64,000 nt of DNA from Curvularia clavata (lineage: Eukaryota), in the NCBI GenBank assembly GCA_023920165.1, contig CP089276.1:2480001-2544000 (forward strand). Reading direction: 5' to 3'. The first letter of the stretch is position 1, and the number at the start of each line of letters is the position of its first letter. The position numbers and the translations under genes were made by a program. The notes beneath the pieces are model-generated. The model saw only the letters and a list, made by a program, of their open reading frames with translations. It ran no database searches and was not told where the DNA came from. Below, piece by piece: positions 8,790 to 25,900 of the stretch.

Positions 8790-10770
8790 GTGTTTACATA
8801 TCTACCTATCTATAACGTGCTCGTCTATCGCGACCATCGCCGCGTTATCTGTAGCACGGACGAGCATCTTAAGCGCCATTATAAGCTACCAGCAGCAGAA
8901 AGAAGAGCGCTACGTAACTACTTAGCGCGTATAGCAATCTCTCTCCTATCACCAGATCAAGTGCCTCTTCCTGCCCCTTATAGACCACCTTTCCCTAAGC
9001 TAGGCCTACCAGAAAACACGCTATTCTGCTGCTGCGATATAGCATGTAGCTTTATTACTACAAGCCGTAGCAAGATGCAGCAACACGTTAACCAGAAGCA
9101 CAGAATCCTTCTTACCCGCTGGTCCGCTCCCTTAGCTACCTCGTACGCTGAGCATGCTGCCTAGCTATAGGGGCATATCCGAGTACAAACCTTCTTCCGC
9201 GAGAGCCGATATATCCGCTACTTTACTATCCAGAAGCAGCAGCAGCAAGACCAGCGGAAAGCGCCGCAGCAGGATAGGATCCAGCTAATGACACTAAAGC
9301 AGAGAGAGGCAGAGCGCCACCAGCAACGCCTAGCTAGCCTATGGTACGAGTGGGACATGGTCGCGACTAGAGACAGCCAGGAGATTGAGCGTGTAGTAAA
9401 AGAAGCCTTAGCTAGAGACTGCACTGGCTGGTTCAAGCGGACGCGGTGCGACGAGCACCTCCAGGCCTATCCAAACTGGTAGCTACTATCGTACGCCGTA
9501 CGGCTACCGTCTAGCGACGAGCCGTATCTACGGCGCGTTGTCAGTCTCGTAGAGGAGCTTATAGACCAGGCAGCAAATAGCCTAAGTACAGTATTAATCG
9601 ACATGCTACGTTGGCTGCGCAGCCCACGGCCACAAAACAGCGATATACGCCCGTTTGGCCGGATGCAGAACAGGGCTAGCCAGGTGCGCGCAGCGCGACT
9701 CTGGGCACAACTTCTCTGCTACTGCCTCCGCATGGTGGCGATAGAGCAGCAAGAGCTGGGCCAGCAAGAACACAGCCGCAGCGCCAGGACCCCTTACTTC
9801 CAACCGAGCTGTCTGATATCGCAAGATTGTTGTATGGCACGCAGAAAGAAGCAGCTACGCAGCTATGGCTATCTCTCTCGTCTACTAGCAACAACAGCAG
9901 TAGCTCTAGCGCAGCGCAGCAGCGTACGTACATACGGCATCTATCCTAGGCGCTTATCTGCCAAAAAGTATATCACTATCCATTTGATAGCCCACTTATC
10001 CACTTTCTAGCTGCTCTTGGTATCTACCCAGAGACTCGTCTGCGTACTGCTGCTGATTCTTCTACTATACTTTGCGCTTTAGTTTACTGCGTACGGGCGT
10101 TAACAATAGAGCTCTTCCTCCCAGCAGATAAGCGGGCTGAGCAAGGTGCTGCTGAGACAGACAGCTTTCTTGACCAGCATGCCTGCTATCTAGTAGGCAG
10201 CTCGTACAGCCTAATGAGCACTATACTAAGCTTATTAGCATACAGCAAGTTTATTAGCATACAGCAAGTTTATTAGCATACAGCAAGTTTATTAGCATAC
10301 AGCAAGTTTATTAGCATACAGCAAGTTTATTAGCATATAGCAAGTTTATTGCTATGCGTACGCCTAGTAGCAGCGCTAGTAGTATATGGTGGTCGGCAGA
10401 TCGACAGACGTTCTATATTAAAGGCCAGCCTGTTATGCTACAGCGATTTCGCGAGCTTGCCCAGGGCGTTGTTGCTAAGGCGGAGCGCTTAATATGGGAA
10501 GAGCAGCTGTGGATGAGCGAGCACGAGCATCGGCCGACGACTAGGCTAGCGGAGATACAAGACGACGTGTCTATCCGATGCCGTGGTGTATGCTACCTAT
10601 TGCCGTCGCAGCTGCGCCAAGGGCAAGCTTAGGTGCTAGATCGATTGACTAGAGTAGCTGGGGCGCAGAAGCTCTATCAGCAGCGCGTAAGACTACAGCT
10701 AGAGCAGTTAGAGCAGCTACCAATAAGTAGTAATCTAAGCAGCTCTAGCAGCCCACGCAGCTATCTACCA
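8790..10770 (+). pseudogene. DUF3505/OrsD-like Zn-finger protein of the type found N-terminal to fungal RecQ/telomere-linked-helicase-like proteins; stops, frameshift, truncated
   Basis: Motifs read across stops: YNVLVYRDH...HLKRH, C..C...MQQHVNQKH, VQTFFRESRYIRYF, TGWFKRTR..EHL, LWAQLLCYCLR, SLMSTILSLLAYSK. Family assignment is from recognition, not a search. Confidence 0.6.
10232..10350 (+). repeat. 19-bp tandem repeat TTATTAGCATACAGCAAGT x6 plus partial
   Basis: Units start at 10232, 10251, 10270, 10289, 10308 and 10327; only the last carries a C>T change. Confidence 0.95.
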
Positions 10771-11960: not shown

Positions 11961-12475
11961 ATATCTGCCTCTAGGTCTAAAGAATATCTTCGTCTTATTT
12001 TTAAAATTCGTCGTAATAGTCTCCCCGCGCCTATCCCCTGCGATTATTATTTTGCGAATAACTATTAGTGCGTCGCGATGCCCAAAGTCGACGGTAAGCG
12101 TTTGAAGTGCTCTGAGTGCACTCGTCTAGGTCATCTATATGTTAATATATTGTAGGTGTCGTTAGACAAGACTTATAAAGAGTATTAAAAGAAAGTAGAT
12201 AAAGATAAGTAATTATTGGTTTAAGTAATTTCGCGGTTAATGCGAAATAAGAAAATTCTAAAGTAGGCTAAGGAACGTGCTATGAAGAAGACTATATATT
12301 TAGCGAATTCCTTACGCGAAGGTAGTGATAACATAGACGCGTAGGAGTCCCTAAACTGCCCTGCGGCCAATATATTAGTAGGGTTCTCACCTATTATATA
12401 GAGTACTTTGGATTCTCTAGACGCCCTAGCGTTATTTTTAAATTCTAGCAATATTTCTGTTTTTTCTTTCTAATA
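11961..12475 (+). pseudogene. Antisense accessory gene of A1: Zn2Cys6-like cluster plus coiled coil
   Basis: Frame from ATA(11961, presumed RIPped ATG): SASRSKEYLRLIFKIRRNSLPAPIPCDYYFANNY*CVAMPKVDGKRLKCSECTRLGHLYV..., followed by a charged helical stretch. Confidence 0.65.
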
Positions 12476-13179
12476 GTAAGTTCTTTTTATAGTTTTATAG
12501 TATTTTTTAATAATTACTAAGATTATCCTCTAGTTTCTATATATTTTCGCTATTATCGTATTCTAACTATTTAACTAGGTACTTGGTTTTGTTGCGCGTA
12601 GTCTAGTGTACTAGAATTTTCTTAACTTCGAATTCGTCTTCTTCTTCTAGTTCGAAATAGAATGTTTTTTATAATAGTATTTTAGGGTCTGCAGATTTTA
12701 GTAACTTAACGTGAAACTTTAGGTGTATTTTCACATCTGGTGGTAGATCGAGTGTATAGATAACTAGTCTATTCTAGGCTTTAATTAAAAATAGCTTAAC
12801 GTAGATATTATCTAATCTCTTATTTAGTTATGTCGTACGAAGGTTCTTTATAAGTAGATATACTTTATCTCTCTTCTTTAGCTAAAGTACTATTTTTCTT
12901 TTCTAGTTAATATATAAGATGCTTTAGCGTTAAGCCTTTTTAAATAATTTTTATAGTTCTTCGTATATTTTTTTTATTTCTTTAGCTATAGCGATGGCTA
13001 CTTCTATTTTCAAACTTGGTAATATTCTAGTAAAGAGATTCGGGTGTTTTCTATAGTTCGTATAAAATAGTGTTTATTTCGTTAATTCTGATAGCTTGTT
13101 ATTATATGCTAGTTATGCTATAGGTAGTAGTTATATCTAATTATTTTGTTAGTAGTTGCTATTAGACTGGTAAATGGGT

Positions 13180-13420
13180 ATGGGGCACCCGGCTCGGGTT
13201 GGGGTAGGGCTTGGGGCTATAGAGACTCGGGCTGGGGTAGGGCTAGGGCTGCTAAGAGTCGGGCTGGGGTAGGGCTGGGGCTGCTAAGAGTCGGGCTGGG
13301 GTAGGGCTGGGGCTGCTAAGAGTCGGGCTGGGGCAGGGCTGGGTTGCTTGGCACTTAGGCTAGGGTAGGGCTAGGTTACTAAAGAGTTGGGTAGAGGTAG
13401 GGCTGGGTATAGCCTGCCCA
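13180..13420 (+). repeat. Left subterminal repeats of the hAT (GGGCTGGGGTAGGGCTGGGGCTGCTAAGAGTC-type units)
   Basis: Directly visible tandem G-rich units; related units in both orientations at 19320-19590. Confidence 0.9.
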
Positions 13421-13536
13421 GCTAGGTTATGAATAACTTTAGGCTAGAAAAGATTCGAATTTATTACAGTTTATTATTACAGTAGCTTTAAAAAAAACTT
13501 TAAGATAAAACCAATAGGATTTATTACAGTTGACTA

Positions 13537-16134
13537 TTACGGTAGCGCGCAGGGCGGACACGCTTTCATAGAGAAAGTGGTAACTTGTCCTCTACCTCAT
13601 CCACTTCCTCTAGAGATTCTTCTATATCCTAACTCTAATACTAACTCCCATACTCCTCTATATCTGCTAGAAGCTTAAATAAATTACTAATATTATTAGA
13701 AAGTTAAGTAGCTTCCTCTATAGGCTCGTCTAAGTCTCTATTAAGACTCTCCATCTTATTAGAATTTATAAATTTAAGAATTATAAGTTATCGAATCTTT
13801 TTAGTAGAAAGCTAATGTCGACGATCACTAATAACTTCCTTAGTAATACTAAAGACTCTCTCTACACCTACTTGTGCAATTGGTATAGCTAGAATATCTT
13901 TTGCAACTTAGATAAGGTGGGGGTACGTAATCTTACTTACTTTCTACTACTCTAAGATATCGATATATTTCTATAGATTAATACTAGGGCTGTTTAGATA
14001 TAGCTCCTTTTTTTAATAGATTGGCCCTCTACTCTCCTCAATTTCCTAGCTTGAAGAATCTTGGCTTAAAAGAGAAATCTAGCTTAATTATAATCGAAGT
14101 AAAATAGGCCTTCGAAACTATTCTATACTTAATACTCTCTAAGGAAATAAGCTTAGTATTAACTATATAATTTCTTAATTATTATATTAAGCTAGATAAT
14201 TAAGAAACTACTGCTGGTAAATATACTTATCTTAAAACTCCTATATCTCATCCTATATCTTTTATTAGTATCTATCTATAATAAATATCTATAATAATAT
14301 CTTGTAGGCTATAAGCTTTTACATTAGATTAAAAATCGTCGTACAGTTGAATAAGAAGCTACACTCTTTATTAGTTTTCGAGTAGTATTTACTCAACTTT
14401 GCCCTCTCTTTCGCCGCCGCAGCTCTCACTACTTATGGCTAGTTGCTATTCTCTAAGTCTTTTCCTAAATCAACCTCTATCTAATTAAGAAAATTAAAAA
14501 GCTAATTATACATAAGCTAGATATATAGTATTTAAAGTTTTCGACTCTAACTTAGAGACATTATTATAGTCTTAAAATAGCTAAGCATTTTAGTAACTAT
14601 CTCAAGATGCGACTATTCTTATGCAGATAGTCGTAGTCTCTTAAGATCCTAAGAATTAATATTAGTATTATTGTCGGCCTCTAAGAGGTTTTTAGTATAG
14701 ATAGGAACTCTTAACGCGATCTCATCTTTAAGCCATTCATCGATATATTGCCGAAACTTAACTGCGCGCTTATATATATTATATGTTGAGTTCTATCGTA
14801 TTCTAACATTACGGATAACACTAAGGCGTTTTTTTAGTAGTAGATCCTGTTGTGTTGCGAGAAACCGTTCGTATCGCTGAGGAGATGAGTTAACTATAAT
14901 GCAGATTGCTCTAATCTATATTGTAGTTAGTATGTGATAAATAACTATAATAAAAAATTCTTCCCTTACGAAATGAATTAGAGACTGAGATGTTGGTATT
15001 TACTTTATTAATCTATTATCTCTACAAATCTTATATATTATCTAACTTGGTAGAAGCTAATAGTTTTAAGTACTAGATAATATTCTAGATAATAAGATTG
15101 ATAATATAGGCTAAGTAGGGAATAGTGTTTTTACTTAGACTCTAGCTTATACTAAGTTATTATAGATCTTGCTAAAGAGACTGCGTAAGAGTGCTATTAT
15201 TGCTGGCATTATCGCAAGTAATGGATAGCAATTTTTTTTAGAATTTACTTCTAGAAAGAAGTTTTAGAACTTTATCTGCTATTAAAGCTCTAGTATATCT
15301 CCTACGGATTGGTATAAAATCTAAAAGCTTTTCTTTAAGTTGCTATTAAATATTAATATAGTAACCTTTGATTATAAAGAAACTAAGATAGTTACTTAAA
15401 GTCTAACTATCTAATATAAGTAATATTTTTATTCCTTGGCTAAGATTATTAAGAAGCTTAGCTGAAGCCTTCTCAAATTATAACTTAAACGCTAGCTTAA
15501 ATTTATAACGGCTAATAATCATAGTATTAGGCTAGAGAAACTAGAGAAATCGTTAAAATAATGGCCGCTCAAGTGTTCGGAAGCTCTAGTAGTTATTAAC
15601 TACTACTCTTACTAGTTCTTGTTTGTATATCTTAGTTAAGTAGGCTAGTATTACGCGAGGATTAATATTTATTAGTAGTAGGATACTTTAGTAGAGTGAG
15701 TTCGATAGCTCGTTGTATATAGACGAAGAGATAAGCTAGTAAGTCTAGGTTTAATAATATCTATAAAGATGCTTTATACTAATATTTCTAGCTAATAGGT
15801 GCGCGAGTATATAACTATAGTTCAAGCAGAAGATATATAAACAGCTAGTTAGGACCTCTACAGCCTCTCTAAAGTTTGCCTAGATTTAGCTCGTACGATA
15901 AGAAGAGCCCCAGTATAGAACTGGCTTCGAAGGATCTCGGGCCTATAGTATTTTATTCCACTACTTTTTCTAGTTTAAAATAATTGCTTTATTTTCTTCA
16001 TTACTATTATTTTTAAATACTAAATACTAGATAAGTGTAAGTATGACTTTAAGACTACCTTTATCTCAATATAGAGCATTTATCTTAAAATGCGCAAGGA
16101 TATCTAGCAATTCTATAGGAGGCTCAGCCATCAT
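13537..16134 (-). pseudogene. hAT transposase, RIP-inactivated
   Basis: KILLILDS*T (first Asp motif), SITCDNASNN, IPYLAYIINL (CxxH after de-RIP), VRIR*NSTY, and dimerisation domain **KVSKITYPHLI*VAKDILAIPIAQVGVERVFS...DRRH*L. Intron at ~14917-14960. Confidence 0.92.
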
Positions 16135-16329
16135 GAAGATTATACCTATAATAAATAATTATAATAAATTAAAGTTACTAGATAGACAAATATTATCTAT
16201 AGAAAACTAGATATGGTAGGAAGTTCTAAGTCCTCTAGCTTCTAGCATAGCTAAGATTGTCTAAAACACTAGTGTTATTTAATATATATCTAAAGTAAGT
16301 TTTATATAAGAGAAAGTTTAGATCAACAC

Positions 16330-17625
16330 AGAGGTTATACTATAATTATTAGCTAGAATAAACCCTAGTATAATATTCTAAACCCTAACTACTAGAGTAT
16401 TGTTAGAGATCTGCTTAAATAGCCAGCACTACTCAGACTTCTCTTCTTTAGCCTTTTCATCTTAATCCTCAGCCTCCTCTATCTCAGTACTATTAGCCCC
16501 TTCTAGAGCTAAAAAGCTATCGTTACTACTATAGCCATCCTTATCCTCGTCTATAATCTTATTCTTATTATTAACCTCTTCTTTACACTTATTACTATTA
16601 TAGCCCTCAATATATAGCTTATTATCCTTAAAACGCGTATCTAGATCAAACTAGTCAAGAATAGAAGTAGGCTCTTCTTGTCTATACTAGTTAGTCTTTA
16701 AATATAATAATAAACTATAATAAACTTACTATTAGAAACTATCTATAGTAAGTTCTTTTTCTTTAGAAGAAAGGTTTTCGTAAAACTTGAGCTACTTATC
16801 TCGTGCTTGCTCACTCTCAAAGATATTGTTGTTTAGCTTAGCTAATCCTTAAAGATATTCTTTGCGTATAAGTAAATCAACAACCCCCTTTTAACTATAG
16901 AGACGAGCAGAAACGCGTAACCCCTTAGTAGAGGTATTAGACAGAGCGTCGCTAGAGGTAGTCTAGAGAATAAGCTAATACTATCTTTTATTGATCTTAT
17001 TCTAGATTTTAGACCATTTCGCGTATATAGCTTGGAGAGCAAACGCTATCTAATTAGCTAATAACTATTAGTAGATATCTATAATAAAAGACTATAATAA
17101 CTTACTACTTCGCTTTTCTTTAAAGCGCTTAGATTTATACTCTTTAAAATAGCTCTTTATAATCCTATCCTTCTTATCCTCTCTGGCGGTCTTATACTAT
17201 TCTTTCTCTTTAAATAACTTAAGAAATTTCGCCCGAGCAGCGCGGTTAGCATCTTTGGCGCGTTGGAGAGCGGCTTCTTCCTTAGTACGTGACGCGGCGA
17301 GATCTCTCTATGCAATAGCTCGAGCTATATTACTAAGCTGACCTTGATATTAGACTTGTAGACTAGTTGGACGACCCTTTTAGGAACCTCTAGATCCACG
17401 TTACGCAATAATAAAATTAATCTTATCTTACTTATTTTCAAAGCCCTACTAACGTTAGTATTTACTATAATAATAGACTAGAATTATTACTTTAGTAAGA
17501 TCTATCTACTTCTACTTAGTAAAGTTCTTAGATATTTAGGCAACGCGTAGAGGTGCTAGACCCTCAGATACGTCGCCATCAGTCTCTGTCGTAGACTCGC
17601 GCTTAATTTCTGGCGTACGCGGCAT
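16330..17625 (-). pseudogene. Second hAT cargo gene, unknown; coiled-coil-like middle and acidic tail; 3' end approximate
   Basis: ATG 17625 MPRTPEIKRESTTETDGDVSEG, then ...RDLAASRTKEEAALQRAKDANRAARAKFLKLF... GTA...TAG introns near 17450-17490, 17055-17105 and 16682-16729. Confidence 0.6.
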
Positions 17626-18541
17626 TATTAACTATAATAAAGTACTAATATAACGTCTAGTATAGTGAGAGTAGGGAGAAAAGGGATAGTTACTAAGAGA
17701 AAGTAGGAAGTTTGGTGATAGTCTACCTATTAAAGTAATTAGAGGTCCGTGCGCTCTAGATTTCGCGCTAGCATTAGGCTAGCGAACAACATCTTTCATA
17801 CAGCTAATATCTTAGATAATAAAAATTAGAGCGCTTTAATTTTAGTCTTATTTAAAAGCCCTAGAGTAGCTCTATCTAACGAGCTAGTTATTATAGTATT
17901 TAATCACTACTTTATTAAGTTATAGCAATTTCTTGCTAACTATCTCGCAGACCCTTAGTAAAACTCTAGGTAATCCATGCACTCACCTTCACCTTCACCT
18001 TCATCTACTCATATATCCCCAAAATTCTTAACTACTCTATAGCTAAGTATTTATCCACTAATCCTCTCAATCCAAATCTAACTTTCCTAGCCTAACACTA
18101 AATTTCTCAACTCAACCCTACTAGTTATTACAGAAATTTATCACGTACTATATTAGCAGTAGACAAGGTAGGGGGGCTAGACGATAAGTTGTTTGAGGAG
18201 ATGGCAGAACAGTTAAATATGCTCCTGTCGCCTAAAAGACAGGTATCTTAGCCGCTGTTACCTCGCGAATTAGAAGCTCTTAAAGACGAATTTAAGGTTT
18301 TAGGAGCTTAGATAACTAGCAATTCTACTTTTTCTACTAAAAGTGGCTAACTAAATCTATAAGTTTATCACAGTAATTTATCATAGAAAATGGCTAATAA
18401 ATACTAGGACTACTATTTATAATTATCCCTTCCCGCCCCATATCTCAACTAGTGGCTATCTTATATCTTTTACATACGTTTATCACAGTAATTTATTACA
18501 AGTAATAGCTAACTAATAGTAGGACTGGCACTATATTCTAT

Positions 18542-19118
18542 AGTGTAGGTGGCAAAACCGCTCATAAGCAGCCAGTCAATTATAGGCCGCCCACGCCTAA
18601 GCCTAACAATAAGAATCAAGAGTTGGAAAGCAGCAAGGAAGACGAGTCCGGCCCTCCTACACCACCCGGTGCTCAACCATCTACGTCTGGCGCCTCTAAG
18701 AGGCGCAGGTTTAAGTCTAGCAATAAATTTATCACAGTTATTTATTATAGCAAGCGACTAATAATTACTAGCTATTACACTAAAAGAGATTAAAAGATTC
18801 TAAAAATCTACTAATCTATTTATTCCAAAAACTCAATTTATAAAACTTATTAGGGAGATTATAGGAGACGTATATCCGCAACACCCTCTACGTATCTAAA
18901 GAGAGACATTAGAAGGTCTTTAAGAGACTGCTAAGTATTTCTTGGTTAAATTTCTTAAAGATATATTATATTATTATAGATATTAATCACAGCTACTAAT
19001 AGATCTAGACTATAACATAAATGCTATCTATACTAAGAGAGTTACTATTCAGAAGAAGGATAGGGATCTTGTCAAGCACTATCTTAACAGACTTGGTATA
19101 GATAGTATTAAGTACTGA
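18542..19118 (+). pseudogene. Histone H3-like gene (tail motif plus histone fold) carried by the hAT; further 5' exons likely from ~17977
   Basis: Spliced translation (introns 18723-18771, 18961-19008): SVGGKTAHKQ...KRRRFKSST ITLKEIKRF*KSTNLFIPKTQFIKLIREIIGDVYPQHPLRI*RETLEGL*ETAKYFLVKFLKD YNINAIYTKRVTIQKKDRDLVK. Colinear with H3 [20 protein letters not shown]...AIHAKRVTI. Confidence 0.9.
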
Positions 19119-19319
19119 GGGCTTTTATAATAGAGTATCAAGTACTAATAGCTTTTATAATTGAGGGATAGCCATAATTAAGAACTAGCTATATACTAGA
19201 AATTAAATAAAAGTTTTATAAGTTCTTAATTTTTAATTTACTACTATAATAATTATGCGTAATAAGTCTTTAATATATACAGAGTATATATATATCTAAT
19301 AACTAAGATCTAGCATAAC

Positions 19320-19590
19320 CTAGTACTAAGCAACCTAGCCCTACCCTAGCCCGCTTATTAAGCAACCCAGCCCTGCCCCTACCCAACTCTTGACTAACCC
19401 AGCCCTGCCCCTACCCAACTTAAATGCCAAGAGTTGGGTAGGAGCAGGGCTAGGTTACCTAATAAGCGGGCTAGGGTAGGGCTGGGTTAGCCAAGAGTTG
19501 GGTAGGGGCAGGGCTGGGTTGCTTAGTCATCTGACCCAGCCCTACCCCTACCCAACTCTTAGCAGCCCTGCCCCAGCCCTGCCCCAGCCC
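19320..19590 (-). repeat. Right subterminal repeats of the hAT
   Basis: CCCAGCCCTGCCCCTACCCAAC units and their reverse complement, same unit family as the left end. Confidence 0.9.
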
Positions 19591-19943
19591 ATTTACCAGT
19601 CTAGTTGCTATACATTCTAAGGTATGTTTTCATTATGCGATTTATTCTTTCTGTTTGTCTGTTGGTTTCTGGGTGGTAAGCTGTAGATAATTTTCTTTTA
19701 GTGCCTATTTCTACTATAAGTGTGGTCTAGAAATTTAATGTGAAAAGCTTATCTCGATTGCTAATGATTGACCTTGGTATTCCGTAATATCTGATGATTT
19801 TGTCGTAGATAACGTGCGTAAGTTGTACTATAGTATAATCTTTTTGGAATAGTATGTATTCGGCGTATTTCGTAAATCTGTCGATAACAACTAGTATTGT
19901 GTTGTAAACTGTGTCGGTGACGAGGTCTATTGATAGTAGTAGT

Positions 19944-22900
19944 TGTAACGGCGCGAGCAAGACTAGTCGAATCGGTTCCGGTGGGAAGTGTCACTCAAAT
20001 GCATATGGAAGTGCGTGGGACAGCAGAAACACCTTGGATTCGGTAGACACTTATAGGCCTGGTACGAAAGGATATCAAAAATCTACCGAATATCTATAGA
20101 AGGTACCTGGTACTTATACCTGGGTGCGGGTCTTCATTAGGTCTAACCCAGCTCTCAATCGGATCTTAATAAGCTGCCCTAGCTGGGGTATATTTTAGTC
20201 TATGTATGGTTACATTACCCCCCCTCCTGGTAGACAGCTAGTCCTATAGCTGTCTATTCCAGTTATCATTCTTCTTCCCTACACTATAGGGTCTCTCGTT
20301 CCTAATTTCCCCTAGATTTTCCCTATACTGCGCCACTCTAGGCAATAGGATGCTCCAGTTCCGGTGTGGCTTCTATAGCCGTGCATGTCCTTCACTTAAG
20401 CCTCTGTGCCTAAGCCTTAGTAACCATTCCAGTACTTATATGGCGCTGCTGCCTTGCTGCCTGGCTGCTAGGCCGTTTACCTTCACCTGCTAGACAGGCC
20501 TGGACGCTTTGATTGGAGCTCCGAGTCGCCGGCGATTCGTTTATAGTCAGGGTCTAACGGCTATCTAGGTCACGTGTGCCAAGACTATTTACTCCCCTAG
20601 TATATATATCAACAATAATATAGTGTCGCCGCCAAATTTTCTCCTCTACGCTTCTTAATCAAAACAAGTCAGTTATAACTCAACGCACTCGTTTTCGCTA
20701 TACCTCTTCGTTGTCCGCCCAGTGCGCTACCAGATGCGTATCGCTTCATCTATCTGCGAGCTGTCCGCGTCTTGGCGCGCCGTTAGTTCGACATTACTTA
20801 CGCCTACCCGTCTAATTCCTCCAAGAAGTGTCTTTATTACACCCAGCAGAAAGAGAAGTGCGATTCTATAAATTTGCTTCTCTTTTCTTTTACTGTTTAT
20901 AGCTTAGCTAACCCAAATAGGTTTCTAAGTACGTCTTCAAGGAGTTTTATAATTTAATTAATATTATTAAATTGTGTGCTATCGCTTAGTATAGCTCTAT
21001 AGTTGATGCTAATATAGAGATATTACTTGATCGAATTACTACCGCCGCTTTAGATATCGCCTGTAAGGTCTAAGTTATTAGGTCCTAGAAGAAAGAGCTT
21101 TTAGTTAATTAGCTCTTTATCGCCCAGAACCAGGTCCTAAGGGATATCTAAGATAGTATCTCAGAGTTAGTCGATATAGTTAATAGTATAGAAAGGCGCC
21201 TTTCGCGTCTTAAGGCTAGGTCGGCTTAGGGTGGCGTTTAGGTCGGCCCTCAGGTCGAGAAATTAGAGGAATAGTCTAGTTTGTCCTCCTCCTCAGAGGA
21301 GGACAAGGGTGCGGTTAACTAGGAGATAGCTAATACTAAGCTAGAGCGCTCTAATATTAAGCTTTAAGTAAGGTGATATTTAAAAGATTTACTAGTAATT
21401 ATAGGGTTTGGGTCTAAGTTTCCTTTATTACTAATATCTAATAAAGTTTCTGTTTTTCCTTTTCCCTAAATTTTATTATTCTGTAGTAAAGTTATATTCT
21501 CTATATCTTATTCCCATGCCATAATCTACTTACTAAGGGAACGTAGGGGTCCCGGTTTAGTAGGATATTATTTATAGAAGAGTTTAAGCTTATATAGGGC
21601 TCCTATAAAGTTTAAAGCTAGATACTAGGTAGAATTCGGGTTATATCCAACCTACTATACTTAGTATTTTAGGTTTGAGCGGTATAACTTACTTACTAGA
21701 ATTTCTTCTACCTCCTATTCTTCTATACTTTAGATAGGAGTTGCTAGAGGCTTTAGAAATTCTTATCCTAAAAAGAAGTTTTAAGAATCCTTATATAATA
21801 GATCTAGGGCGAAGATATTATAGATCTAGGACTTTTTTAGAAGGTCTAAGCGGTATAAATATCCTATCTTCTTAAGTACTCTAAAAGGTCCCTCTTATTT
21901 AGAGAATAACTTCCTACTTAGATAGTCTAACGCGAGGTTCCGGGTACTTAGGAAGACCATATCTTCTATATCCTAGTTAATAGAACGACGATAGCAGTTA
22001 ACTATAGTTTGTATCCTATTCTGAGCTTTCTCTATTTATTCTTTAGCTACCTTCTATACGTTGTATATACGGGTAGCTATTTCTAATGCATCCTTATAGT
22101 TAAGTTTATTAGTAGGGGTGAGAAGGCTAGTAGAATATTTCTAGTCCCAACTCTACCAGAGTTTAGAACTATATAGGATATAGTATAGGGATATACTAAT
22201 AGAAGAATATAGTAGGGAAATTTAAGCACAATTAATCAAAAATAGAAGTCTACTCTAGTTATCTTAGTAGTAAGATACGAATAGGCGCAACTTTTAATTA
22301 ATATACTTATTTATAATCTCTATCTAACTATCTATTTCTTTATAGTAGGCGGTTGATAGCTTAACCTTAACGTCTAGAATTTGGCAGAATTCTGACTAGA
22401 AGCTTAAAATGAACTATAGTTCTTGGTTAGAGACTATAGTTTTAGGTGTGTAGCTAAATCAGTACACCCATTGCATAAATAGGTCGGCCATTCCCTTTAT
22501 ATTAATAGTCTTATAGTAGGGGATAGAGATAGCCTGCTTAGATAACCGGTTGATTACAACTATAATTATATTGTAACTAGATCGGTCTTAAGGAAATTTC
22601 TTAAAGTTAATATATAGGTGCTATATCGGCTAGTTAGAAATTAGTAAAAAATAAATTATCTCTAGAATTCGGGTCTATCTAGAATAGACCTTCCTATAGG
22701 CTATATAATTCCGTATATATTTTTTATAGGTAGATTCCATACCCTTCTAGTAGTACTTCTAGAATAGTAGTTAGTAGGTCTTCTTCATACTAGAGTGCGC
22801 TAAAGATACTTAGTCGTGTACTTCCTAAATAAGACGAGTTATAAAGGTAGAGATAGAAGAAATATATAGGCGGTTGGAATAGAGCAGAAGTCTATTTTTA

Positions 22901-25900
22901 ATCTAGTATCTATCTAGAAGGGACCTTCGCTCTGCCCTAAATGAGACTTAGTTCTCTTATAGAATAGACTCAATTAGCTCTAGTAAATCGAGAGATATTA
23001 GCTCTAATATAGGCTCAACTACAAGTAAAGAGAAAGATTCCGCTTAGAGTTGGGCTACATAGGTCTTAGCAAGTTCAGAGTTAATTTAGTTATTAAGTCA
23101 GTATAGTCTTAGGAGGACCCGCGAATAGTTATTAATTTAGGCTATTTTTAGATTTTCTACATTTTGCTCTTATTAGGAGAGAATATTAGCACAAGCATTA
23201 TTCTTTCTAGGGGTATATTAGATGTAGAAATTAAAAGATGCCAATTCTTCTATCTATCGCACTTAGCGGGCATTTAGAACTTTAGTAGTTATAAAGTATT
23301 TAAAGGAATAGTAGTCTGAGTATATATTGACACGAGAGCGTATTAATAGTAGCTCTAGTCGCCACTTGCTAAACGCTATTATAATAGCAAATAGTTCTTT
23401 ATCATATATTTCCTAGTTTAGCTCAGACCTGGATAGGACCTTACTAAAGAATACTATAGGATACCAATTTCTATTTAGCTACTTTTAAGAAAGAACGCCT
23501 ACTATAACGCCATTAGACGCGTTAGTCTCCATCTTAGTATTATACTCTAGATAGTAGTAGTATAAAGTAGGAATTACTAGTAGTATAGATTTTAACTTTT
23601 TAAAGACTTAGTTGTACTCTAAATTTTATATAAATAGTTTTAAGAGGCTCTAGAGGGCGAGAAGAGATTTCGTAATTTATAAGTATTTAGGAACGAACTA
23701 CCTATAGAATCTAGTAAACCCTAGGAACGACTTCATACTAGTAATAGTAGTAGGTTAGACCTAATCTTGAAGAGCTTCTATCTTGTTAGGATCTACCTCT
23801 AGATTTTAGTTAGTTAAAATATACTCTAGGTATTTGGTCTGAGTAATATAGAATTTGCTTTTCTTAATATTAACTTGAAGACTAGCTTACCTAAGCCTTT
23901 CTAAAACCTATTGTACGTGGCGGAGGTAGTCTAGTTCTGATTTAGAGTAGATTAAAATGTCGTCTAGGTAGACTATATAGAAGCTGTCTAGATAATCAAT
24001 CAATATATTATTTATATAGCGTTGATATGTTGTAGGGCCGTTGTATAATTTAAAAGGCAGCACTTTAGACTTATAGATTCTGTATCTAGTGCGGAACGTA
24101 GTGTACTCCTCTAAGTCGGGGTGTATTCGGATCTTGTTAAATGCCGCACGTATGTCAAGCTTGGTGAAGATTTTCGTCTTATAGGTGCGGGCTAGAAGCT
24201 CGTCAATGCGTAGTATCGGATACGCATTCTTTCTAATAATTATATTAAGTTGGCGGTAATCTATATAGATGCGAATGTCTCTATTTAGCTTTTAAACACA
24301 AAGGACTAGGGAGGTGAAAGGGCAGTAGCTTAGGTTAATGTGTCCTTTTCTAAGGTTTTCTATTACGAACGTCTTAGTGGCTTCGAGTTCTTTAGTGCTC
24401 TGCTTGTATAGAGGACTGAATTAATTCGGAAGAAGTTCGGTTAGTATAATCTTATAATCGTATGGGCAATATTTAGGTAGTAGCTCTGCCGCTATCTTGC
24501 TAAAGACATCGCGGTACAAATGGTAAGCGGATGGAAGTCAGTCCTAAATAAGTTTGGCGTTTTTAGGATTGTCTAGCTTTATACGCTCTTCTAAGATGCG
24601 ATCAATCTTATAGATACTTGTTGTAAAGAACTCGTTTTCTTTACGCTTTATAGAATAATAGAAAGTATTTGCCGAAATGATAGCGATATGGGGTGAAGAT
24701 GTTGGTTGGATAGGGTCTGGAGTAGGGTTGGGAATAGGTGGTGGTAGACGAATTTTGGGAAGTTTGAGGTATTCTCTAATTCTTCGTATAAGAGCTTTGC
24801 GAGGACTGTTTTGCCTCTGGTAGTTGTCTTTTTTTTATAGTGCGTCTCGCCTCTATATGTCCCGTTCTATATTAGTATTGACGGAAGATTGTTTTAATTA
24901 TATAAGAATAGGGGGCGCAGGATTATATATTAGAGGGTACTTAGCTGGCCATATGATTTGGTTCCGGCTCGTATTAAGCCTAAGCTGGAAACGTCTTAAC
25001 TACTTGATTCTGATTATGTAGTTCTGTGTCTTTAGATCTATGATTATGAAGGGATAGTTGTAAATCTTTCTTCTATTAATTTGGATATGTAACTGAATAT
25101 ATTTGTCTATCCTAGTTTGGATTTGGTTCTAAAATCCTTTGACTGTGATCTTGAAAGGAAGTCTTTGGATGGGGATCTGAAGAGAGCTGGAAAGGGTATG
25201 AGCAATAGCAGAATTTAAGAATAAAAAATCTTGGGCTCTGGTGTTAACTAAGGAATGTAAGCTGACGCCAAAGCCTTTCGAACAAAGAACGGTGGGGACT
25301 AGGAAGTGTTTTTCTCTGAATAAGTGGGATAAATTAATTTTAGCTAGATTATACTTGTTTATGTCTAGGGTGGAGAGTTTTTCTAGGTCTGGTAGTTTTC
25401 TGTCTGGTCCTCTTCCGATAAGTATTCGTGTGCTTCTTCGAATTCTTCCTTCTCTGCTTTGATTTCTTAAACCCAAGGAATGGGGCACTTATTCGCATAA
25501 TATCTAGGTTTTCTATAGTTATAGTAATTACTAGTAGTCGGTTTGCTATCTGGTGCAGGGGTCTTTGAAGGGAACCTGGGGGTATTAGAATAAGCGCGAG
25601 ATTGGGTTGGAGCTAGTTCGGATTGGACTCTATAAGTGTTTGGGCGGTAGTTTTGGTATTGACTGACGCGGGGCTTCGTTAGTGGAGTATAAGAATTATT
25701 GGAAGTGGGTTCTAAACTGTGTCTAAAAGGAGTGTTCCTTCTTTCGGTATCGAAGGCAGTAAGGTGTTGTATTATCTTATTAAAGGAGTTGTTCTACTGG
25801 TGTTTAAATCCCAAGTTTGGAATACATAAGGCGGGGGTAATTTTTTCCTATAAGTAGAAAAACCACTCTGACTTTGATATAGATTCTTTGATAGCAGCAC

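Follow-up and report, generated by a model that had tools for sequence, protein, structure and literature searches.

A RIP-inactivated hAT transposon of Curvularia clavata carrying a histone H3-like gene, and the conserved protein family of its central gene

In a 64,000-nt stretch of the Curvularia clavata contig CP089276.1 (hereafter the window), positions 13163-19603 were found to be the exact ends of one hAT DNA transposon of 6,441 bp, which holds three genes: a transposase gene (minus strand), a spliced gene lying between the other two and referred to here as the central gene (minus strand), and a histone H3-like gene, H3L (plus strand), all of them knocked out through repeat-induced point mutation (RIP). 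Taken as a whole, the data are very probably best explained by a RIP-killed full-length copy of an H3L-carrying hAT family of the Pleosporales, which sits in the integrase gene of a long terminal repeat (LTR) retrotransposon and whose central gene serves the element. Nothing in the window copy works any more, every gene being full of RIP stops; from the open frames and conserved alignment columns of its relatives, we infer that active copies keep the central gene under purifying selection, and in such copies the central protein would be an accessory factor of the element.

A hAT of ~5.6 kb with a transposase, a "central ORF" (open reading frame) and H3L was described from Pyrenophora tritici-repentis, as given in the accessible text of Manning et al. 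(2013, G3, PMC3538342). The three-gene layout has thus been in print since 2013 and the architecture is no discovery, so that the chief contribution of the window is one more copy, a dead one, from a different genus. What is new lies at the family level, where the central ORF was found to belong to a conserved, mostly Pleosporales-restricted family with a confident structural model and fixed intron positions.

Structure and insertion site of the element

As summarized in Table 1, the element is bounded by one pair of terminal inverted repeats (TIRs) and an 8-bp duplication of the target site (TSD), and no internal TIRs were found, indicating a single cut-and-paste unit. Alignment of the outer inverted repeat gave a score of 56, compared with 23 ± 4 for a null of random segment pairs drawn from within the element. 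An earlier note on this DNA, made from the letters alone, had set the element at these very bounds and had read three genes in it on the strands given above, with the ATG of the central gene at 17625; the TIRs and the TSD coincided exactly with the former, and matches to hAT, histone and homologous proteins bore out the latter. Elsewhere in the window, blastn detected no second copy, but only one 53-nt AT-rich chance match.

The window consists of genic DNA of ~50% GC alternating with blocks of ~30-35% GC, and the element lies inside one such block. Its RIP indices (TpA/ApT, 1.59; (CpA+TpG)/(ApC+GpT), 0.61), set against those of the genic flanks (0.63-0.75 and 1.26-1.31, respectively), were characteristic of RIP. 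With the element and one octamer excised in silico, a continuous, RIP-damaged integrase-like frame was restored on the minus strand from the flanks at 12300-13154 and 19612-20400. The left flank, into which this frame runs on downstream, matched the Pfam families SH3_Tf2-1 (E 2e-6) and Chromo (E 4e-4), and the right flank gave no Pfam match to the rve integrase domain at E<=0.1; the integrase identity of the right flank is based on integrase-like motifs seen by eye in the restored frame together with the two left-flank matches. This closure of the frame across the empty site indicated that the hAT had inserted into the integrase gene of an LTR retrotransposon of the chromodomain type.

The transposase gene was recognized by its hAT dimerisation domain (PF05699; E 2.7e-11; bit score 43.6, cut-off 21.4; profile positions 4-81 of 84), located at ~13773-14003, and its ATG at 16137 and a hAT-like "ITCDNASNN" core were read by eye.

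Conserved protein family encoded by the central gene

By tblastn, residues 1-332 of P0002, an intact 332-aa protein of Exserohilum turcica, were placed on 17625-16381. The central gene, which has 29 stops in 395 codons when read through, was 58% identical to P0002 over 365 alignment columns, and the gaps in this alignment fell exactly on the three introns of the gene. The gene model of P0002 (SETTUDRAFT_24621) was seen to skip a conserved stretch of ~19 residues (F.E.LSPEEKELAIDS.W), which is present in the window (16730-16800), in the family member P0005 and likewise among the remaining members.

The family was defined by an exhaustive HMMER search with P0002 among 1.84 billion representatives, which returned 66 representatives with E<=1e-3, of which 19 reached E<=1e-10 and 6 reached E<=1e-30. 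An organism look-up was made for 30 of the 66 clusters, 13 of which carry an organism name, the other 17 deriving from metagenome or read-assembly contigs. Twelve of the 13 named clusters belong to the Pleosporales (Pyrenophora seminiperda, P. teres, P. tritici-repentis, Alternaria alternata, Boeremia exigua, Exserohilum turcicum, Stemphylium lycopersici, Didymella exigua and Lojkania enalia), and one to a lichen metagenome-assembled genome, that of Flavoplaca navasiana (Teloschistales). Several members lie on contigs of 5.6-7.2 kb, about one element in size.

Full-length members (340-367 aa) were 33-40% identical to P0002, and frames remained open, with near-invariant residues and fixed intron positions, in members only 30-45% identical. 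Many of the short matches were single exons ending at the same alignment columns, indicating that the intron positions are conserved family-wide. The conserved motifs comprise PEGL.PP...GF..EW..LT at the N-terminus; a basic loop before the helical core (QRGQGGS.KGRPT..VPYKG.LS...RA.AQR), whose RGQGGS-(R/K)KGRPT segment appears AT-hook-like by eye; DRAAK, KRF..KKS / EWL....L..VHKKW and GGV..K..RK.Y..GL.KL..N.F.S..AK.EW..F...L.PEEL; and PY...DECEEE.D, EYE and a terminal FEGFS in the acidic tail.

An AlphaFold2 model of P0002 built from 68 sequences (predicted local distance difference test score, pLDDT, 80.3; predicted template modelling score, pTM, 0.68; 185 residues at >=90) was all-helical and confident over residues ~20-250, and the exon-3 domain modelled alone reached a pLDDT of 78.9. 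The long helices at 86-194 correspond to the coiled-coil-like middle, and residues 253-332, with 28 D+E among 80 residues and a net charge of -20, to the D/E-rich tail that had been noticed before in the letters of the window.

These properties bear on whether the cargo genes are functionless hitch-hikers, namely captured host fragments that persist only through recent amplification of the element. Such a reading would accommodate the suggestion of possible drift in the H3L genes made by Manning et al. (2013, PMC3538342) in the accessible text, as well as the H3L tail exon without detectable similarity to H3 tails and the RIP mutations carried by every copy examined. Neutral decay, however, would not leave open frames, near-invariant residues and intron positions in place at 30-45% identity, and no host paralogue of the central gene turned up among the 1.84 billion representatives; we thus regard hitch-hiking as very improbable. 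A captured host fragment free of selection, which had been named beforehand as an outcome that would undo the idea of a functional cargo pair, is not what the 66 representatives resemble. Judged from its alignment, the central protein, with a family-specific length of ~330-360 aa, belongs to a conserved transposon-borne family without a recognisable fold, and is not a decaying host fragment.

Association of the central gene with H3L

Other copies of the element were examined as contigs of four sequencing runs (four coded organisms) aligned to it at >=80% identity. In each of the four runs, 30 of 30 element bins were covered. A contig of 1936 nt (17436-19371) spanned the 5' end of the central gene, the intergenic region and all of H3L, and another (15175-16761) joined the 5' part of the transposase gene to the central gene. 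Among the 11 joints listed, there was not one that deletes a single cargo gene and spares the other. The fraction of the element's sampled words was 0.64-0.69 in two runs of one coded organism and 0.05-0.12 in fifteen other runs. All element copies examined were RIP-mutated; the differences between copies were nearly all transitions (in run X1, A>G, 369; T>C, 255; G>A, 208; C>T, 202; at most 3 in any transversion class), in keeping with independent RIP of each copy.

Two proteins of P. tritici-repentis were homologous to P0002, namely P0012 (the central ORF, 287 aa; E 3e-24) and P0011 (E 1e-26). The latter, annotated as "Dimer-Tnp-hAT domain-containing protein", is a chimera, whose residues 9-150 matched exons 1-2 of the central gene (17577-17107) at 33% identity and whose C-terminal half matched the 3' end of the transposase gene (13907-13533) at 44% identity. 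With its halves falling on the central gene and on the transposase C-terminus, P0011 matches the long and short forms described in the accessible text of Manning et al. (2013). The P. tritici-repentis element, as far as described there, has the same three genes between one TIR pair as the window element, and the core of the window H3L resembles yeast-type H3 (KRVTIQKKD), as Manning et al. noted for Candida (PMC3538342). The two differ in size and genus (~5.6 kb, compared with 6,441 bp in Curvularia), in the central proteins, which are only ~33-40% identical, the P. tritici-repentis central ORF being 37-41% identical to the Exserohilum P0002, and in condition: the P. tritici-repentis copies are described as nearly identical and transcribed (PMC3538342), whereas the window genes are all RIP-destroyed. 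Membership of the window element in this family is based on the three genes between one TIR pair and on the homology of the central ORF and of the transposase C-terminus.

The central gene and H3L were accordingly neighbours in both lineages with known context, that is, in the window element with its copies and, as published in the part available, in P. tritici-repentis, although the central proteins of the two element lineages differ by ~60% at the protein level. The earlier note had considered that the central gene might be absent from most H3L-bearing copies; instead, it adjoins H3L in the window, in all four runs and in the P. tritici-repentis element as described. Metagenome locus scans with the family members P0007 and P0013 gave pattern matches, none of which was confirmed by tblastn. 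With the central gene beside H3L across a deep divergence, transposon domestication of a histone together with a partner becomes a testable question.

The H3-like gene and its divergent spacing

H3L matched the Pfam Histone family (PF00125; E 2.3e-8; bit score 34.7, cut-off 26.4) and 161 H3 sequences of the PDB at E<=1e-3, the best of them being yeast H3 chains (E 3.4e-9), and its core reads TLKEIKRF-KSTNLFIPK...KRVTIQKKD. The tail exon (18521-18721) matched no PDB chain at E<=10 and showed no detectable similarity to H3 tails. In a comparison by eye with the canonical tail (ARTKQTARKS...K27...), only ART, GGK and KQ aligned, and the positions of K4, K9 and K27 were not lysine.

Two upstream exons stay in frame with the tail exon, and H3L may thus carry a longer N-terminal extension, which would bring the ATG-to-ATG distance to 577 bp. 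The splice donors of these exons have G in other copies and A here, pointing to G-to-A changes at 18472 and 18474; Pfam gave no match on the putative 5' exons. The head-to-head arrangement of the two cargo genes claimed in the earlier note was confirmed, while its spacing of ~350 bp would require H3L to start at the ATG at 17977. In our reading of the exons, the earliest plausible coding ATG is the one at 18203.

Word-indexed searches with the RIPped histone-fold exon and with the tail exon found no intact H3L protein, the latter matching only P0075, a 243-aa C. clavata gene model (yc1106_04572), to part of which the tail exon is identical. The pieces of P0075 are spread over 15 kb of the window (9603-9923, 10444-10587, 17230-17286, 18539-18724 and 24504-24548), with 100% identity to four of the five and 87% over 18539-18724; among them are the H3L tail exon and a piece that runs antisense to the central gene. 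P0075 gave no Pfam match. It seems to be a chimeric annotation strung across RIPped transposons.

A bipartite motif in the introns

Nearly every intron of the element was found to share a bipartite 23-nt motif, TTTATYAYAG-T-N3-TTATYAYAG (TTTATCACAG-N4-TTATCACAG type). Between 13460 and 18992, we counted 10 copies at <=2 mismatches and 14 at <=3, for which shuffled sequences gave expectations of 0.03 and 0.21, respectively, and the other 57 kb of the window, including ~20 kb of other RIPped DNA, contained none. Twelve copies lie at the 5' part of introns or untranslated-region (UTR) introns, in the sense orientation of their own gene, namely on the minus strand for the transposase and central genes (14276 to 17654) and on the plus strand for H3L (18364 to 18992). 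The two non-intronic copies (Table 1) belong to the left subterminal region, where they run antisense to the transposase gene at its 3' end, and a weaker copy in the opposite orientation is located near the right end at 19244-19265.

The same motif is old and could be followed through the protein family. At least 17 family proteins have been called without splicing and contain an intron-2 read-through, S-G-K-L-S-Q/H-x-x-I-T-x-x-Y, which back-translates to GTAAGTTATCACAG-N4-TTATCACA. This intron-2 motif was present in members with exons only 30-45% identical, including a P. tritici-repentis copy, and an intron sequence better conserved than its flanking exons points to a function. Candidate roles are that of a DNA site bound by the transposase or the central protein and that of a shared splicing control of the three genes. 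Scans of public collections returned two single matches in viral and 20 single matches in bacterial/archaeal contigs, none of them clustered and none in a fungal element, where we estimate the chance level at ~17 (18 specified bases, 596 Gb). A narrow literature search found no paper mentioning this element-wide, evolutionarily conserved intron motif.

Possible role of the central protein

The central gene appears to have stayed head to head with H3L across the divergence between the Pyrenophora and the Curvularia/Exserohilum elements. Selection on the central gene and its retention beside H3L, taken together, would suggest that the central protein most likely acts on element DNA or chromatin, with H3L and/or the transposase as its partner.

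One way in which it might do so is as a co-factor independent of H3L, binding the element DNA (e.g. at the bipartite motif) or the transposase, in a role akin to that of the second ORFs of PIF/Harbinger, MuDR or En/Spm, with H3L as a separate passenger. We consider this a serious possibility, though one short of an even chance. The conserved basic loop before the helical core and the abundance of the 23-nt motif, including its non-intronic copies in the left subterminal region, would both be in good agreement with it, as would the P. tritici-repentis derivative described in the accessible text of Manning et al. (2013, PMC3538342), which joins the N-terminal 150-160 residues of the central protein in frame with the hAT dimerisation domain and which is multi-copy and transcribed; such a fusion could be a route by which a transposase-associated regulator arises. 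No DNA-binding domain was recognisable, however, in the Pfam and fold searches, and the retention of H3L alongside is left unexplained by this proposal. Moreover, hAT elements normally need a transposase only.

Alternatively, the two cargo genes might constitute a chromatin module, as the earlier note had proposed, with the central protein acting as a dedicated chaperone or deposition factor for H3L and both being co-expressed from a shared divergent promoter. The acidic tail with its conserved aromatic/acidic short motifs fits such a role, and canonical fungal H3 genes are likewise divergently paired, with H4. It is also consistent with the head-to-head pair being kept in two divergent element lineages and with the P. 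tritici-repentis short derivative, which, according to the accessible text (PMC3538342), has retained H3L and the intergenic region along with 150-160 N-terminal residues of the central protein. The parts of the proposal concerning a pair that is kept together and a conserved family stood, but the chaperone itself found no counterpart in sequence or fold. The PDB sequence search gave as its only hint NAP1L1 at E 0.25, confined to the low-complexity acidic tail. The fold search suggested in the earlier note was run on the model of P0002 and gave no specific fold match: Foldseek returned nothing from the PDB at E<=1e-3, and the best VIA-align matches, at Z 7.0 with the whole protein and Z 5.1 with the exon-3 domain, were generic helical bundles, neither score reaching the tool's own meaningful level for such bundles. 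No histone was among the 50 fold matches listed for either model, and hhalign assigned a probability of 0.08% to a relationship between the family profile and the histone fold of the window H3L. Furthermore, the acidic tail is weak evidence for a chaperone because the transposase of the same element also ends acidic (EE..EEV). The idea of a dedicated H3L chaperone is neither refuted nor backed by a positive result, and we judge it rather doubtful.

As a further possibility, the transposon might possess a chromatin system of its own, comprising an H3 variant whose tail would lack the lysines used in silencing (K4, K9 and K27, as judged by eye), a dedicated acidic-tailed helical partner and the 23-nt motif, placed in every intron and in the subterminal regions, which would recruit the partner or coordinate splicing of the three genes. 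This would be improbable in our estimation; if true, nucleosomes on the element would carry H3L and escape H3K9/K27-based heterochromatin.

Several of these results also weigh against our overall explanation of a central gene serving the element. To the PDB, Foldseek and VIA-align searches just described are to be added Pfam, in which no family matched the central protein, and the ESM Atlas, which gave no usable match. The P0002 model that was folded lacks the conserved stretch of ~19 residues because its gene model skips it, purifying selection was read from open frames and conserved columns and not from dN/dS, and the co-occurrence with H3L is documented in two lineages only, namely the window element with the copies that are >=80% identical to it, and the element of P. 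tritici-repentis as far as published. As for the transposase, neither an RNase-H-like DDE core nor a BED zinc finger gave a Pfam match at E<=0.1 in its three RIP-damaged frames.

One ancestral unit or a nested composite

A further objection of this kind comes from a 2025 preprint (10.1101/2025.11.13.688278), which, in the part available, reads the long form of P. tritici-repentis as two nested hATs, the 5.6-kb form being hAT-1_Ptr (2,603 bp) with a nested 3,278-bp hAT flanked by a 6-bp ATAGTC duplication. If this is right, "three genes in one element" would describe a composite, in which a second hAT lies inside a short H3L-bearing hAT and the central gene as well as the transposase would each have been assembled from two elements. 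The accessible text of Manning et al. (2013, PMC3538342) takes the long form as ancestral and derives the short form by deletion.

The hexamer of the preprint (GACTAT on the plus strand) does sit in intron 2 of the window central gene, at 17090, where it also fits a microhomology breakpoint. At the equivalent inner boundaries, 13907 and 17107 (segment 13908-17106, 3.2 kb), no inverted repeat was detected (score 20, null mean 23), although this point alone is weak because inner TIRs may have been lost here through RIP. An unbroken stretch of exon 2, intron 2 and exon 3 was present in at least seven clusters (P0007, P0010, P0013, P0026/P0083, P0040, P0066 and P0081), and exons 2 and 3 of the central gene were joined in full-length proteins of six genera. 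In addition, the short-form chimera has a 5'-truncated hAT dimerisation domain (profile positions 22-83 of 84), whereas that of the window transposase begins at position 4, and this truncation is explained by a deletion but not by an insertion. A nested composite is therefore, in our view, most improbable. The window and family data favour one ancestral three-gene unit, in line with the deletion reading of Manning et al., and so help to decide between the conflicting published readings of the P. tritici-repentis element as a source of deletion derivatives or as a nested insertion.

The short form of 2.3-2.6 kb, as described in the available parts of both sources (Manning et al., 2013; 10.1101/2025.11.13.688278), belongs to the same family, of which the window contains the long form only. 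For hAT-1_Ptr, the preprint gives a 6-bp TSD and a 17-bp TIR, compared with the 8-bp TSD and 16-nt TIR of the window element.

Comparison with other systems

Another case of H3 capture is found in the hATs of the Mycosphaerellaceae, reported in the accessible text of Dhillon et al. (2019, Mob DNA, PMC6710886), which represent an independent capture by an unrelated hAT. As in the window, an 8-bp TSD and H3-like cargo are described, together with amplification followed by RIP inactivation in AT-rich blocks. Those elements differ in being ~9.5 kb long and in carrying one or two intron-less, partly truncated H3 copies derived from a transcript, and the accessible text of that paper does not mention a central ORF.

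Outside the hAT superfamily, a second family-specific protein beside the transposase is well known, as exemplified by the Myb-like ORF of PIF/Harbinger, mudrB of MuDR and tnpA of En/Spm; these belong to other superfamilies and have no sequence relation to the window element. Acidic disordered C-terminal stretches occur in the histone chaperones NAP1, nucleoplasmin, DAXX and HJURP/Scm3. The tail of the central protein is acidic like theirs, but no significant sequence or fold similarity was detected, and we do not claim membership in any of these groups.

Other features of the element

The coordinates of the element's features are collected in Table 1.

Table 1. Features of the hAT element at 13163-19603 and of its target site (positions are those of the window; ~, approximate).
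Feature	Position	Strand	Basis or remark
TSD GTTGCTAT (8 bp), left copy	13155-13162	none	
Left TIR TAGACTGGTAAATGGG	13163-13178	+	16/16 nt complementary to right TIR
Left subterminal array, ~32-nt G-rich repeats (GGGCTGGGGTAGGGCTGGGGCTGCTAAGAGTC type)	13186-13413	+	
Two non-intronic motif copies, 60 nt apart	13460-13542 (starts 13460, 13520)	+	0 and 2 mismatches
hAT transposase gene, RIP-inactivated	13533-16137	-	Dimer_Tnp_hAT match, C-terminal half of P0011
Transposase motif-bearing introns	~14276-14298 and ~14932-14954	-	
Transposase 5' UTR motif-bearing introns	~16146-16168 and ~16340-16362	-	
Central gene ("central ORF" of Manning et al., 2013), RIP-inactivated	16381-17625	-	tblastn of P0002
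Central-gene introns	~17449-17490, ~17058-17105, ~16682-16729	-	In frame; 42, 48 and 48 nt
Central gene, probable 5' UTR intron		-	Ends just upstream of ATG 17625
Divergent intergenic region, presumed shared promoter	17626-18202	none	352 bp if H3L starts at ATG 17977
H3L gene, RIP-inactivated	18203-19118	+	Pfam Histone, PDB H3
H3L putative exons	18203-18358, 18408-18473, 18520-18722, 18772-~18956, ~19002-19118	+	5' exons inferred from open frames only
Right subterminal repeat array	19316-19587	-	Inverted relative to left array
Right TIR, reverse complement of TAGACTGGTAAATGGG	19588-19603	-	
TSD GTTGCTAT (8 bp), right copy	19604-19611	none	

The C-terminus of the transposase (~13540-13620) ends in an acidic stretch, ...EESLEEVDEVED, with an EEEV-like motif, and the tail of the central protein (16440-16560) is likewise acidic and also has an EEEV-like motif, reading ...DECEEE(V/L)D; MAFFT aligned both in the P. 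tritici-repentis chimera. This likeness may be a coincidence or a shared docking motif.

End-only derivatives resembling miniature inverted-repeat transposable elements, in which 13163-13352 is joined to 19466-19603, were observed in runs X1, X3, X4 and X8 (four coded organisms). The large joints ran from 13276 to 19534, 13180 to 19490, 13352 to 19466 and 13247 to 19534, the first of them with an 18-nt filler that was the same in two organisms and the second with GGGCC.

The left subterminal array contains five copies at 32-nt spacing, which form inverted pairs with the array of the right end, and the GC content at 13159-13420 was 0.62, compared with 0.34 for the whole element. Each 32-nt repeat has four G-runs (GGGCTGGGGTAGGGCTGGGG), and the subterminal repeats have kept their high GC where the remaining element has fallen to ~30-35%; a pattern of four G-runs could form G-quadruplexes.

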